Position numbers and translations under genes: made by a program. Of a stretch of 64,000 bases of DNA, positions 33,488 to 39,381 are shown piece after piece (position 1 is the first letter of the stretch; every line of letters starts with the position of its first letter). The stretch spans positions 85,711-149,710 of the forward strand of contig CAZHRF010000002.1 in the NCBI GenBank assembly GCA_964534625.1. Reading direction: 5' to 3'. Under the pieces are notes generated by a model that was not told where the DNA came from, ran no database searches, and saw only the letters and a program-made list of their open reading frames with translations. The stretch comes from an uncultured archaeon. Its GTDB lineage: Archaea; Asgardarchaeota; Heimdallarchaeia; Heimdallarchaeales; Heimdallarchaeaceae.

Positions 33488-33538
33488 ACAATGAATGATT
33501 TGGGAATAGAATAACAATGAATAATCTGGGAATAGAAT
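33488..33538 (+). repeat. 26-bp-period direct repeat duplicating the HMG-CoA synthase start; creates uORF MNDLGIE* (33491-33514)
   Basis: acaatgaatgatttgggaatagaat versus acaatgaataatctgggaatagaat. Confidence 0.85.
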
Positions 33539-34557
33539 CTTATGGTATATATATACCAATATATCGGATTTCAATTGAAGAGATTGCAAAAATATGGGAT
33601 GAAGATGCAACAGAGTTGAAATCCCAATTACAAGTATTTAGTAAATCAGTACCCGCAAATGATGAAGATGTTGTAACCATGGCAGTAGAAGCAACAAAAA
33701 ATGCAATTAGCATTTGGTCTGGTGATTCCAAAGATATTGGAGCTCTTTATGCTGGGAGTGAATCTCATCCTTATGCAGTAAAACCAACAGCTACTATTGT
33801 TGGTGCTGCTATTGATGCTGAACCAACTTATACTGCTGCAGACTTAGAATTTGCTTGTAAAGCTGGAACTGCAGGTATACAGATGTGTATTGGTCTAATT
33901 GCGTCCAACATAATTAAGAAGGGAATAGCTATTGGAGCTGACAGTAGTCAAGCAAAACCAAGTGATCCTTTGGAATATACTGCTGGTGCGGGTGCTGCTG
34001 CCTTCATTATTGGTAAAGACAAAGTAATTGCCAATCTAGATGGGACATATTCGGTGACAACTGATACCCCCGATTTTTGGAGAAGAGAAGAAGCTGCCTA
34101 TCCATCTCATGGTCAACGTTTTACAGGAAAACCAGCTTATTTTCGACATGTTATTGATGCTACAAAGGGTTTAATGGAAAAATTAAATAGTTCTCCTGAT
34201 GATTATGATCATGTAACTTTTCATCAACCAAATGCAAAATTTCCTCTTGCAGTAGCCAAAATGTTAGGGTTTTCAAAGGAACAAATAATGGGCAGTTTGG
34301 CATGTCAATATATTGGTAATACATATTCTGGATCCTCTATGATAGGATTAGCAGCTATACTTGATGAAGCAAAACCAGGAGAAAAAGTATTGATGACTTC
34401 ATATGGGAGTGGAGCGGGTAGTGATGCTTTTGCTTTTACAATTACTGATGAAATAGCTGAAATTACCTCGGAAAATACTGTTAAGAAGTATATAGAGAAA
34501 AAAAAAGAGATCACATATGGAGAATATGCAAAATTAAAAGGTATATTAAAGGTGTAA
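33517..34557 (+). CDS. mvaS: Hydroxymethylglutaryl-CoA synthase (archaeal type)
   Basis: GSESHPYAVKP, DLEFACKAGT, DTPDFWRR, FHQPN, IGNTYSG, SYGSGAGSD. Confidence 0.96.
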   Translation: MNNLGIESYGIYIPIYRISIEEIAKIWDEDATELKSQLQVFSKSVPANDEDVVTMAVEATKNAISIWSGDSKDIGALYAGSESHPYAVKPTATIVGAAIDAEPTYTAADLEFACKAGTAGIQMCIGLIASNIIKKGIAIGADSSQAKPSDPLEYTAGAGAAAFIIGKDKVIANLDGTYSVTTDTPDFWRREEAAYPSHGQRFTGKPAYFRHVIDATKGLMEKLNSSPDDYDHVTFHQPNAKFPLAVAKMLGFSKEQIMGSLACQYIGNTYSGSSMIGLAAILDEAKPGEKVLMTSYGSGAGSDAFAFTITDEIAEITSENTVKKYIEKKKEITYGEYAKLKGILKV

Positions 34558-34560
34558 TTG

Positions 34561-35730
34561 ATGAACAAAGTATATGTTATAGGTTATGGTTTAACAACTT
34601 TTGGAGAACATTATGAGAAAGATGGAGCTGAGTTAGCAACAGAAGCTGTAAACTCTGCAATAGATGATAATAATATCTACAAAGAAGAAATAGACATGGC
34701 ATATTTTGGTACAATTAACTCTCCCGCTGATTATATGTCTTCAGTCCAATTTCACGCTCTCAAAAATTGTGGTTTAAAGATACCCTCGATCAGAATAGAA
34801 GCTGGAAATGCAAGTGGAGCTGCTGCTTTTAAACAAGCCTATTATTCAGTTAAAGGTGCAGCCACTGATTTAATTGTGGTGATAGGTGTAGAAAAATTAT
34901 CTGATTTTGTAAAACCCGAAATGATGGAAGAAATTGCAGCAAATACAATAGATTATCAATGGGAATATGAGATGGGGGCAACAGTAACGAGTCTCTATTC
35001 ATTAATAACTCAAGCTCACATGGAAAAACATGGTACAACTATGGAAGAGTTGGCTGCAATCCCAAGTAAAAATCATGCGCATGGTGTGAATAATCCTAAT
35101 GCCCAATTTCGTAGGGCTCTGTCAGCTGATAAATTCTTGAATGCAAAAAGAATAGCTGATCCAATAGGTAGATTTGATTTGGCAACACCATGTGATGGAG
35201 CTGTAGCTATCATTTTGGCATCTCAAGATTATGTTGAAAAAAACAATATAGAAAAAAAAGTGCCTGTGTTAGCGTCAACACAAGCATCTGATTATCTTGC
35301 ATTACATGATAGAAAAAGATTAGATGAATTTATTGCAACTAAAATAGCTGCAGATAAAGCATATAAACAAGCTGAGATTGGTCCGACTAAAATATCGTTT
35401 GCTGAAGTGCATGATTCTTATCCAATAGGTGAAATTCTTTCTTTAGAAGATTTGGGGTTTTTTGATAAAGGACAAGCTGCAAAAGCAGCAATTAACGGTA
35501 TTACTCATATTGGAGGAGAAAAACCAATTAACCCTAGTGGAGGATTAAAAGCACGTGGTGATCCTTATGGGGCAACGGGGTTGGCTCAAATAGTAGAAGT
35601 TGTCCAACAGCTACAAGGTAAGGCAGAAAAAAGGCAAATAGATGATGCAAAATATGGGTTAGCCCAAAATGTGTATGGAACAGGTGCAATGACATTTGTG
35701 CATATATTAGGTAAGGAGGAGATTCGATAA
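34561..35730 (+). CDS. Thiolase-fold protein of the HMGCS-thiolase-DUF35 triad, catalytic residues substituted
   Basis: Thiolase motifs KNH, DGA, INPSGGLKARG and GATG are present, but EAGNASG, HDSY and GDP replace EAACASG, HDCF and GHP. Confidence 0.9.
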   Translation: MNKVYVIGYGLTTFGEHYEKDGAELATEAVNSAIDDNNIYKEEIDMAYFGTINSPADYMSSVQFHALKNCGLKIPSIRIEAGNASGAAAFKQAYYSVKGAATDLIVVIGVEKLSDFVKPEMMEEIAANTIDYQWEYEMGATVTSLYSLITQAHMEKHGTTMEELAAIPSKNHAHGVNNPNAQFRRALSADKFLNAKRIADPIGRFDLATPCDGAVAIILASQDYVEKNNIEKKVPVLASTQASDYLALHDRKRLDEFIATKIAADKAYKQAEIGPTKISFAEVHDSYPIGEILSLEDLGFFDKGQAAKAAINGITHIGGEKPINPSGGLKARGDPYGATGLAQIVEVVQQLQGKAEKRQIDDAKYGLAQNVYGTGAMTFVHILGKEEIR

Positions 35731-36122
35731 TGAAACAACCACCAAAAATTTGGAGAGAGAGAAGACAAAGATATTTTATGGAAGGAATACGCTGTAATAA
35801 GTGTGGAAAAAAAACTTTCCCATCTGCAAGTTTCTGTCCAGAATGTGGAAGTGAAAATTTAACCCCCTATAAACTGGAAGAAAAAGGAAAAATACTCTAT
35901 TTTACAATTAGCCGAATTAATACTCAAAATATAATTCGTGCTACATCTAGCATACTAGCTTTAATTGAATTAGATGATGGGTTAAAGATCACTGCACAAA
36001 TAGTGGATATTGATCCTGATAATGTAAAAAGAGGGATGAGAGTTAAAAATGTGTTCCGAATATTGTCAAAAGATGAGAAAGATGGATTAATACAATATGG
36101 ATTAAAATTTAGTCCAGTCTAA
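35730..36122 (+). CDS. DUF35 Zn-ribbon/OB-fold scaffold protein
   Basis: CNKCG...CPECG, GMRV...FR, IQYGLKF; overlaps the thiolase stop. Confidence 0.93.
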   Translation: MKQPPKIWRERRQRYFMEGIRCNKCGKKTFPSASFCPECGSENLTPYKLEEKGKILYFTISRINTQNIIRATSSILALIELDDGLKITAQIVDIDPDNVKRGMRVKNVFRILSKDEKDGLIQYGLKFSPV

Positions 36123-37485
36123 TATTCATTATTGATTGGATCTTTAAGCCTTCTTTCTTTATTTTATCTTTTATAACTTGAATTTCTTGATTATACTCTT
36201 GCTGTATACCATGCTTGAAAGCATGGATTCCTCCTTGATGTAAATCATTGAGTACAATAATTCCCCAGCCACAACCATTCTTTTCTTCGTTACAATATTT
36301 GCAATACGAATTGTCTTTGGAAATTTCAACTTCAATATTGAGCTCTTGTAGCAAGTAATCAGGTATGTTATTTTGAACAGAAGAACTTTGATCACAGAAA
36401 GGACATTTTTCAGAGAACATATCACGAATTCTTCTTTTTGCTTCATCAAAAACAGAATTGAAAAAGTAACCTGTGGATGATTTTAATAACTCAGACATTG
36501 AAGTATCGGAAATTTCTGTAAGTTTTCCTATTTCTCCAATTTCATCAACATCAGCAATTTCTATCAAATTTTCAAATCCTTTAACGGTCGTCTTAATAAC
36601 TATAGGGCTATCAAAAGTTTCACGAACTTTTGCGCTGTCATTTGGTATATATGGTTTGATATAATTTTCATTTTTATCTTCAGTAATAATGTTGAAAAAT
36701 ACTGCATTGATCATTTCAGGAAATTTGGCTTGTTTTAGACTATAATGATGTACAGCATAATCCATGAGTTTTGGATGAATTAGTTCGTCTTCTTCGTCGA
36801 TTAAAAATATCATTATTACCTCATTTTTTGTTAAATTAACAGCAAGAGGAGGTAAGGTTGGTTTATCAAGATGTAATGTTTTTAGGATTCCCATACGTTT
36901 GGATGCCAAAATTGCTTCAATTTCCTTTACTGTATTTACAATATGTTCATCAATGATATTTTCTTGTGGTTCAGAAACCTCAAATCCTTGTTCTAAAATT
37001 GAATGAGCGAAATCATCATTCCAATAATTTTTCATCCATTCCCAGGGGATAAATATAACATTCTTCTTCTTATACCATAATTTGGTTTTTCTTGTTTCTC
37101 CATCATAGTAATAGAAAAGTGGATGATTACGAGAAGCTTTTTCCATTATAATAATAGGTACGGCTTTTAACCCTTGAAATTCTTTACAATTTTCTTCATC
37201 AACCCCCTCATGTAAAGCTTTAATGCAACTTAATAATTTTAAAGCGGGTTCCTGAAGTTTTTTTTCTATTTGATCATCACTTCCAGTAAAAGGATCACTA
37301 GCAGAGCCACTCCTAGCGCGAATACATAAAAGTAAATCATCTTTGTACGCACACATTATTACTCTTTTGTAACTTTCATAATAATCGACACCTTTAGTAT
37401 AAATCTGACACATATTAACTCTGAACCCTTTATCTTGAAGAAAAGCTTCAATAAGATTCATGAAGTTCGATTTGAACAAACTCAT
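36109..37485 (-). CDS. Hypothetical protein with C-terminal CxxC...CxxC motif
   Basis: 458-aa ORF; CPFC and CKYC near the C-terminus. Confidence 0.6.
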   Translation of the reverse strand: MSLFKSNFMNLIEAFLQDKGFRVNMCQIYTKGVDYYESYKRVIMCAYKDDLLLCIRARSGSASDPFTGSDDQIEKKLQEPALKLLSCIKALHEGVDEENCKEFQGLKAVPIIIMEKASRNHPLFYYYDGETRKTKLWYKKKNVIFIPWEWMKNYWNDDFAHSILEQGFEVSEPQENIIDEHIVNTVKEIEAILASKRMGILKTLHLDKPTLPPLAVNLTKNEVIMIFLIDEEDELIHPKLMDYAVHHYSLKQAKFPEMINAVFFNIITEDKNENYIKPYIPNDSAKVRETFDSPIVIKTTVKGFENLIEIADVDEIGEIGKLTEISDTSMSELLKSSTGYFFNSVFDEAKRRIRDMFSEKCPFCDQSSSVQNNIPDYLLQELNIEVEISKDNSYCKYCNEEKNGCGWGIIVLNDLHQGGIHAFKHGIQQEYNQEIQVIKDKIKKEGLKIQSIMNIRLD

Positions 37486-38163: not shown

Positions 38164-39381
38164 CTATGGTTCGGCTTGGAGTAGGTTATAAAGCCAAGGA
38201 TTTAAAGCTGAGGTTAAATCACGAATAATCATATCATTAATTGAAGCTGATTTTGCTGAACCACTTCGCCAAAAAATTGTGTACCCTTCACTTCTAGGCA
38301 AATAGACCTTTTGAACAATTAAGCTCCCTTCAGGATTCATGATGTCTCTTTTTAATAGTAAAGATGTAAAAGACTGTGTATTTTTTTCGGTTACTTCATG
38401 ATATGCTGAATATACATGTGATAGTACCATACTATGTTGTTTTTCAGAAATATATAAACCAATTAGAAGTCCTTTATCATCTAAAAGCGTCAACCCATCA
38501 AAATCATTAGCCACAGCAAATTCTTCCAATAAACTATTAATCAGTGAAAACACAGGAAATATTCTAGTTAAACCTTTAGCCATGCTTACATAGATGCTTG
38601 ATGGTGTGAATATGCTCGTGTAATGTATGTCATAAGCTAATTCATCGAAATGCTTAATTTTCTCTTTGATTTTTTCAACTAATATTGGTGCTTTGTGTTT
38701 AAGTATATAGGCTTTATCTTGGTCATATTTGTGGATTAATATAGATAGCTCTGGTGCCTCGTTAAGATATCTATATATGGAGAGGATTCTAATCAAGTAA
38801 TCAATTGAGGTTTGATAATTGTCTTCATCTTGGATATCGACTACATAAAATACAATCTTTGCATTTGCAAAGTATAATTCAGGTTTTTCTAAGTAAGCAT
38901 CGCGGAATGTTTTTTGTCCTCCCATATCAGTCACACGTAAAGGGATTCCAGCCAATTTAAGAACTTCTGGTTTGGCACCAAGAGTGGGAGAGGGACTACG
39001 ATAGATGGCTTTAAGGCGATCAATTATACTGGTTTTACCTGCCTCAGATAATCCTGTAAAAATGATTTTACCATGTTGTTCCACCCCCTCTGCTCTGTTA
39101 ATAATTATTTTAGATGCTATTGACCATTTTGTAGTAAGTTTTCTTGAAATTCCTAGATTTTTTTTCTTATCAACATCAGGCAAATCTTTAATCTTCTTAA
39201 TTCCTTTTTCTTTCAATATAGATGCATAAGTTGGTCCAATGCCTCGTAATTTGGAAACATCTAAACGAACGACATCGATTAAACTAAGTTTTGAGAAATC
39301 TTCGATACCAGTTAGCAAGAATTTGATATTATCTGGAATCACTTTTACACACTCTATACTTATTCTAATATCATTAGACAA
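38164..39381 (-). CDS. Rag/Arf-like small GTPase with N-terminal helix-hairpin-helix and C-terminal roadblock-like domain
   Basis: LRGIGPTYA (HhH); GLSEAGKTS, PTLG, DMGGQ, HKYD, TSIF; C-terminal LTLLDDKGLLIG. Confidence 0.8.
   Translation of the reverse strand: MSNDIRISIECVKVIPDNIKFLLTGIEDFSKLSLIDVVRLDVSKLRGIGPTYASILKEKGIKKIKDLPDVDKKKNLGISRKLTTKWSIASKIIINRAEGVEQHGKIIFTGLSEAGKTSIIDRLKAIYRSPSPTLGAKPEVLKLAGIPLRVTDMGGQKTFRDAYLEKPELYFANAKIVFYVVDIQDEDNYQTSIDYLIRILSIYRYLNEAPELSILIHKYDQDKAYILKHKAPILVEKIKEKIKHFDELAYDIHYTSIFTPSSIYVSMAKGLTRIFPVFSLINSLLEEFAVANDFDGLTLLDDKGLLIGLYISEKQHSMVLSHVYSAYHEVTEKNTQSFTSLLLKRDIMNPEGSLIVQKVYLPRSEGYTIFWRSGSAKSASINDMIIRDLTSALNPWLYNLLQAEP

Follow-up and report, generated by a model that had tools for sequence, protein, structure and literature searches.

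The complex formed by a thiolase, HMG-CoA synthase (HMGCS) and a DUF35 protein is presented as the near-universal way in which archaea overcome the unfavourable reaction that opens isoprenoid synthesis; it channels the endergonic thiolase step. In the window considered here (the whole 64-kb stretch of DNA that was analysed), the three genes of such a complex stand in a single operon, and the thiolase-fold subunit lacks the catalytic residues of a thiolase. For what purpose, then, is such a subunit retained? The best reading, to which we give a probability of about 0.6, is that it is a non-catalytic scaffold, kept for the HMGCS/DUF35 complex and for the CoA site shared within it.

A three-gene operon and the residues missing from its thiolase-fold subunit

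The operon (33517-36122, forward strand) consists of three co-directional and tightly coupled ORFs. The first (33517-34557, forward strand) encodes an HMGCS of 346 aa that matches the HMGCS chain of the solved archaeal complex 6esq with an E-value of 3e-124; its membership of the family is indicated by a score of 514 bits, far above the equivalog cut-off of 244 of NCBIfam NF003274, and by the retention of the catalytic tetrad. This tetrad (E82, C114, H236 and N268), of which the preliminary description of the locus had correctly listed the Glu, Cys and His as kept, is invariant in 23 orthologues. The second ORF (34561-35730, forward strand), the ATG of which lies 3 nt downstream of the HMGCS stop codon, is intact as had been described and encodes a thiolase-fold protein of 389 aa, of the SCP2/archaeal type (Pfam Thiolase_C_1, 1e-36; Thiolase_N, 1.5e-14), without thiolase catalytic residues. 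The third (35730-36122, forward strand), whose start overlaps the stop of the thiolase-fold gene by 1 nt, encodes a DUF35 protein of 130 aa made of a zinc ribbon (Pfam zf-ChsH2, 5e-6) and an OB fold (OB_ChsH2_C, 2.6e-10). The only invariant cysteines of this DUF35 protein are the four that bind zinc (C22, C25, C36 and C39), and the idea that it supplies an extra nucleophile was rejected for that reason.

The genes that flank the operon are unrelated to it: a subtilase, an unknown ORF, a CxxCxxCC protein and a RagA/Gtr1-like GTPase. Directly 3' of the operon, on the opposite strand, lies an ORF of 458 aa without any Pfam match (36109-37485, reverse strand), and the same strand carries a 405-aa small GTPase of the Gtr1/RagA and Arf type (38164-39381, reverse strand), a eukaryote-like signature protein. 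Small GTPases of the Gtr1/RagA and Arf types are typical of Asgard archaea. The whole 64-kb stretch is contained in four microbial-mat metagenome DNA runs, possibly its source; the run search listed these four only, and no RNA dataset containing the stretch was among them.

Residues of the thiolase-fold protein were paired by HMMER alignment with those of two solved archaeal thiolases, 6esq from M. thermolithotrophicus (E 5e-67) and 7yvy from P. furiosus (E 8e-70). Where these references read EAACASG, HDCF (HDAF in 7yvy) and GHA or GHP, three substitutions are found. Asn83 (codon AAT, 34807-34809, forward strand) occupies the position of the nucleophilic Cys, so that the CxS motif reads NAS in the context IEAGNASGA. 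The HDCF motif has become HDSY (CAT GAT TCT TAT, 35410-35421, forward strand), in which His284 and Asp285 of the HDxF motif are kept, Ser286 stands for Cys and Tyr287 for Phe; the position of Ser286 is Ala in the P. furiosus thiolase. Finally, Asp334 (codon GAT, 35560-35562, forward strand; context RGDPY) replaces the His of GHP. All three sets of codons are exactly those originally claimed, and the alignment to the Methanothermococcus thiolase, originally proposed as a check, puts N83, S286 and D334 opposite the nucleophilic Cys, the HDCF Cys and the GHx His. As AAT differs from TGT by two base changes and orthologues in more than 20 genomes share the pattern, Asn83 is not to be attributed to sequencing error or chance.

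CxS, HDxF and GHx are the ACAT motifs, and in the archaeal complex the single substitution H284A in HDxF abolishes the formation of HMG-CoA from acetyl-CoA (PMC12960953). Of the attributes of an archaeal acetoacetyl-CoA thiolase, the present protein displays the SCP2/archaeal-type fold, with similarity to match, the His of the HDxF motif and the operon shared with HMGCS and DUF35; both the CxS nucleophile and the GHx His are absent (Asn83, Asp334). Its NCBIfam scores lie below the cut-offs, at 345.6 against 600 bits for the equivalog NF053570 and 405.1 against 420 bits for the subfamily NF004720. From the sequence, the thiolase step probably cannot run by the known mechanism with N83, S286 and D334 in place.

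Conservation, selection and recurrent loss of the cysteine

The 120 nearest homologues belong to Heimdallarchaeia (51-58% identity) and to Methanomassiliicoccales/Thermoplasmata (~47%), and almost all of them are without the three residues. At the nucleophile position they have Gly (54), Asn (48), Thr (12), Asp (4), Ala (1) or Cys (1); the position of the HDCF Cys is Ser in 58 and Asn in 52; and the GHx His is replaced by Asp in 110 of the 120, across two distant clades. His284 is present in 119. Within the window's own family (f1), called Heimdallarchaeaceae here after the sources of the best matches, the HMGCS-thiolase-DUF35 operon was found in 22 of the 24 genomes searched, and every genome with the gene has the Cys-less form, tightly coupled, with Asn or Thr (Ala is also seen) at the nucleophile position, Ser or Ala at the second position and Asp at the third. 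All six operons examined in the sister families f3 and f4 are likewise Cys-less and tightly coupled, with the triplet G/E, I/S, A/Y, and the triplets of Heimdallarchaeia overall take the forms N/T-S/A-D, G/E-I-A or E-S-Y. As to whether N/S/D is conserved in orthologues, the Asp is kept throughout the family, whereas the Asn varies to Thr or Ala and the Ser to Ala, and the sister families differ.

The arrangement of the genes themselves varies in a few Asgard genomes. A closed genome resembling Ca. Heimdallarchaeum (G004, C1:1294000-1306000) carries the pair of HMGCS and Cys-less thiolase genes twice, ~4 kb apart, with a DUF35 gene after the second copy only. HMGCS-DUF35 fusions (ORF of ~510 aa) occur in two other Asgard families (G051, G082), with the fused DUF35 at the C-terminus in one family and at the N-terminus in the other.

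The thiolase-fold gene is under purifying selection at a level similar to that of its two neighbours, with a median pairwise dN/dS of 0.118 compared with 0.087 for HMGCS and 0.137 for DUF35. Forty-six columns are invariant across 32 thiolase-fold sequences, and at 79 positions both nearest clades share a residue conserved to at least 95%. The AF2 model of the protein (pLDDT 90.7) has the Methanothermococcus complex thiolase (6et9_C/6esq) as its best fold match, with a TM-score of 0.94, and the thiolase fold is thus intact in the model despite the loss of the residues. The predicted complex of HMGCS, DUF35 and the thiolase-like subunit scored 0.85, and a control in which HMGCS was replaced also reached 0.75.

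Loss of the cysteine extends well beyond this clade. In a tree of 136 full-length representatives, out of the 150 nearest 50%-identity clusters, the Cys is absent in 50; the tree requires 12 changes, and its strongly supported branches alone force at least eight independent ones. The replacements across the family (D, E, S, G, N, P, A, Q and T) are chemically unrelated to one another and no common new catalytic set accompanies them, which points to a loss of catalysis rather than to one new chemistry. No cysteine conserved across both nearest Cys-less clades was found in the alignment of the two. In an Asgard sample anchored on HMGCS, the operon thiolase has the Cys in ten families, and Glu, Asp or Gly at that position in f6, f13, f17, f23, f4 and one f21 copy.

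Active thiolases in other lineages and the supply of acetoacetyl-CoA

In all other lineages checked, the gene content indicates a division of labour, in which an active thiolase is encoded elsewhere and HMGCS is accompanied by a dead thiolase-fold partner. Four Asgard families (f6, f13, f17 and f23) combine the dead operon subunit with a canonical C/C/H thiolase that stands beside its own DUF35 gene at a separate locus, and two closed genomes of genus g5 likewise have a dead operon subunit and a canonical C/C/H thiolase/DUF35 pair elsewhere. Families f3 and f4 hold 5-9 thiolase paralogues, and on one contig the operon with the dead subunit directly adjoins a classical thiolase and a 3-hydroxyacyl-CoA dehydrogenase. 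Closed Methanomassiliicoccaceae genomes seemed in a protein-query search to hold the Cys-less form only; this was rejected when a search with the Thiolase_C family recovered a classical thiolase from every one of them.

The genome from which the window comes is another matter. It measures 3.37 Mb and is 89.8% complete by marker genes; it is probably nearly whole, since closed g5 genomes reach 92-93% by the same measure. Five independent searches (a protein query, the profiles PF00108, PF22691 and PF02803, and tblastn with the canonical SCP2-type and classical thiolases of relatives) found exactly one thiolase-fold gene. The proposed search for other Cys-containing thiolases thus gave none in this genome, and a second thiolase of any type was found neither here nor in 20 relatives from genera g2, g3 and g4. 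One weak tblastn match of a canonical thiolase, on contig C20, was spurious and corresponds to a PEP-utilising enzyme. Acetoacetyl-CoA synthetase was not found in the Heimdallarchaeaceae family, and this genome gave no family-I CoA-transferase, no convincing 3-hydroxyacyl-CoA dehydrogenase and no DUF35 gene besides the operon copy. The earlier conclusion that acetoacetyl-CoA must come from elsewhere is therefore not borne out here, as no other thiolase or obvious source was found. HMG-CoA reductase is present in the genome, and HMG-CoA is thus presumably made.

Genes of malonyl-CoA metabolism are present. The genome encodes a biotin-dependent acyl-CoA carboxylase with all its parts (biotin carboxylase, BCCP and two carboxyltransferases), and 22 of the 24 family genomes have an acyl-CoA carboxyltransferase. 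It also encodes an intact type III polyketide synthase of the chalcone-synthase family (contig C70:6458-7564, reverse strand), adjoining an OYE-type flavin oxidoreductase; this enzyme was rejected as a general source of acetoacetyl-CoA, since only 10 of the 25 family genomes have it and the most complete ones all lack it.

Malonyl-CoA metabolism is further represented by a putative megasynthase. Contig C11:4461-17970 carries a biotin ligase and an acyl-CoA carboxyltransferase, then an ORF of 3360 aa, then an alpha/beta hydrolase. The domains of the 3360-aa ORF (NMO-type ER, KS, AT, a second KS-like domain, ACP, KR, DH and PPTase) make it look like a type I megasynthase of the fatty-acid/PUFA-synthase (FAS/PKS) kind. 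This giant KS-bearing ORF recurs in 25 of the 26 genomes of the order and, wherever coordinates were compared, lies no more than a few kb from the carboxyltransferase. Archaeal ether lipids begin with GGGP synthase (Pfam PcrB); searches for it found nothing in this genome or in 12 of the 15 family genomes, the two closed ones among them, whereas one family genome (G009) has a strong PcrB match. As the family has the type I megasynthase and GGGP synthase was not found, the thiolase question bears on the membrane lipids of these archaea; if the absence of GGGP synthase holds, the demand for isoprenoids may be below that of typical archaea.

The scaffold reading, its rivals and known systems

In the favoured reading, a subunit without thiolase chemistry would be kept as an obligatory structural partner of HMGCS and DUF35. 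It would supply the dimeric core, the docking surface for DUF35 and its own half of the CoA-binding cleft shared with HMGCS; HMGCS would perform the sole catalysis, the condensation of acetoacetyl-CoA and acetyl-CoA into HMG-CoA, on acetoacetyl-CoA delivered from outside the complex. Such a role is consistent with the loss of the Cys/Cys/His set in a subunit whose fold and operon are kept and whose gene is under purifying selection, with the recurrence of this loss and with the separate active thiolases of other lineages. In the archaeal complex, thiolase and HMGCS share a fused CoA-binding site and, when each is expressed alone, the thiolase is insoluble and the HMGCS inactive (PMC12960953). 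A precedent for a dead subunit is provided by PhlABC and MucABC, in which the HMGS-like subunit is inactive and its assembly is still required (PMC12960953). We infer that the Heimdall subunit, too, still assembles with HMGCS and DUF35 and is needed for HMGCS to function. The preliminary description had offered a pseudo-enzyme scaffold or a different chemistry; that the protein is not a working thiolase stands, computationally, on selection, operon and recurrent loss, and the aldolase analogy that it drew fails (see below). The counter-point to the scaffold is the lack of a second thiolase in searches of this genome and its 20 relatives: with HMGCS and HMG-CoA reductase intact and no source found, a pure scaffold leaves HMGCS here without a known substrate supply. 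In addition, the near-invariance of Asp334 and the 79 shared conserved positions suggest a constraint beyond what a mere spacer might require.

This gap is the main motivation for the principal rival, which we regard as unlikely: catalysis would persist, in the subunit or in the entire complex, by the use of malonyl-CoA, and the family would then need no thiolase. In one version, the Cys-less subunit would decarboxylate malonyl-CoA in the manner of the Cys-to-Gln/Ser ketosynthases of polyketide HMGS cassettes; in the other, HMGCS would condense its acetyl-S-Cys with malonyl-CoA to give acetoacetyl-CoA. KAS III and NphT7 have the same Cys-His-Asn set as HMGCS, but we know of no HMGCS with malonyl-CoA-condensing activity. 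That no other source of acetoacetyl-CoA was found in 21 genomes speaks for malonyl-CoA, as do the complete acyl-CoA carboxylase and the wide occurrence of its carboxyltransferase in the family, the resemblance of Asn at the nucleophile position to the amide of KS-Q, the strong conservation of H284, D285 and D334, and the weak malonyl-CoA decarboxylase activity of TbSLP, another Cys-less SCP2-thiolase-like protein (PMC12329534). However, the nucleophile position varies (N, T or A in the family, E or G in sister families), and measured against KS-Q/KS-DC enzymes, which have Gln, Ser or an amide together with two His, the protein has Asn where its orthologues have T, A, E or G, and retains only one (H284) of the two His used by decarboxylating ketosynthases. 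The N/G-x-D form is also present in g5 and Methanomassiliicoccaceae, which have active thiolases, and is thus not tied to the absence of a thiolase; moreover, one closed Methanomassiliicoccaceae genome is without a carboxyltransferase. The bolder proposal is more doubtful still: that Heimdallarchaeaceae, except Ca. Heimdallarchaeum, enter the mevalonate pathway without a Cys thiolase through an acetoacetyl-CoA route so far undescribed for archaea, for which the top candidate would be a malonyl-CoA-dependent condensation by the HMGCS/Cys-less-thiolase/DUF35 complex, fed by acyl-CoA carboxylase.

A normal thiolase that uses another cysteine as nucleophile, such as C211 in the TPCDG motif, is improbable. 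In the Heimdall clade C211 reaches 97% conservation, but 98% of the sister Cys-less clade and the active M. thermolithotrophicus enzyme have Ser in this column, and Cys occurs there in the P. furiosus thiolase, which has its nucleophilic Cys; the column thus varies independently of catalytic status. The His of GHP that activates the nucleophile is also gone, the sister families are without both, and C211 is on these alignments an unlikely substitute. That the protein is an Ltp2/Sal-type retro-aldolase acting together with DUF35, the analogy drawn in the preliminary description, is very improbable even though a Cys-less SCP2-type fold is indeed paired with DUF35 and the model matches Ltp2 (6ok1) with a TM-score of 0.86. 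Such aldolases are defined by a catalytic base, Tyr in YDHF/YDCY (PMC12329534); the corresponding residue here is His284 of HDSY, a His that 119 of 120 homologues share. In place of Y287 and Y336 most orthologues have Phe, the thiolase of the archaeal complex is a much closer match (E 5e-67) than Ltp2 (E 1e-20), and the protein shares its operon with a bona fide HMGCS. The weakest alternative, a decaying and functionless pseudogene as the lost catalytic residues might suggest, is refuted by a frame that is intact in all genomes, a dN/dS of ~0.12, the 46 invariant columns in 32 sequences and the conserved operon.

The thiolase half of the complex is most likely catalytically dead yet kept across a whole Asgard order. 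Losses of this kind are widespread in the protein family, and for one family near the eukaryotic stem no replacement thiolase was found. Automatic annotation names these genes acetyl-CoA acetyltransferases, so that metabolic reconstructions of Asgard archaea, Methanomassiliicoccales and other archaea credit them with a thiolase step that the present one probably cannot run. These lineages also offer a natural test of the non-catalytic role of the thiolase subunit for HMGCS.

Many archaeal AACT homologues outside the early-branching clades are without the CH motif (Hoshino & Gaucher 2018, PMC6107057); a description of Cys-less operon thiolases was not found in the literature search. The closest known system is the M. 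thermolithotrophicus thiolase/HMGCS/DUF35 complex (2018, cited in PMC12960953), with the same three genes in one operon, an HMGCS matched at E 3e-124 with its tetrad intact, a DUF35 protein with zinc ribbon and OB fold, and a thiolase that is the best match of the subunit in both sequence and fold (E 5e-67, TM 0.94); it differs in having the nucleophilic Cys, the HDCF Cys and the GHx His, for which N83, S286 and D334 stand here. The steroid aldolases Ltp2-ChsH2(DUF35) and Sal-Shy(DUF35) (PDB 6OK1; PMC12329534) are Cys-less SCP2-thiolase folds bound to DUF35, but they have a catalytic Tyr in place of His, are much more distant in sequence and have no HMGCS partner. TbSLP of Trypanosoma brucei (PDB 5AB4-7) is a Cys-less SCP2-type fold that binds acetoacetyl-CoA and malonyl-CoA and whose function is unresolved; in comparison with the Heimdall subunit it has a YDCF motif, is eukaryotic, is without HMGCS or DUF35 partners and shares only ~22% identity. 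A further parallel is with PhlABC of Pseudomonas and MucABC of Streptococcus (PDB 5M3K, 9VBO; PMC12960953), which have the same HMGS/thiolase/DUF35 architecture and in which one subunit of the thiolase superfamily is dead and still needed for assembly, as the scaffold reading would have it here. There, the HMGS-like subunit is the dead one (its E-C-H-N set is lost) and the thiolase-like subunit keeps its Cys; the Heimdall operon is the mirror image and, whereas PhlABC and MucABC serve secondary metabolism, it sits in the mevalonate pathway.
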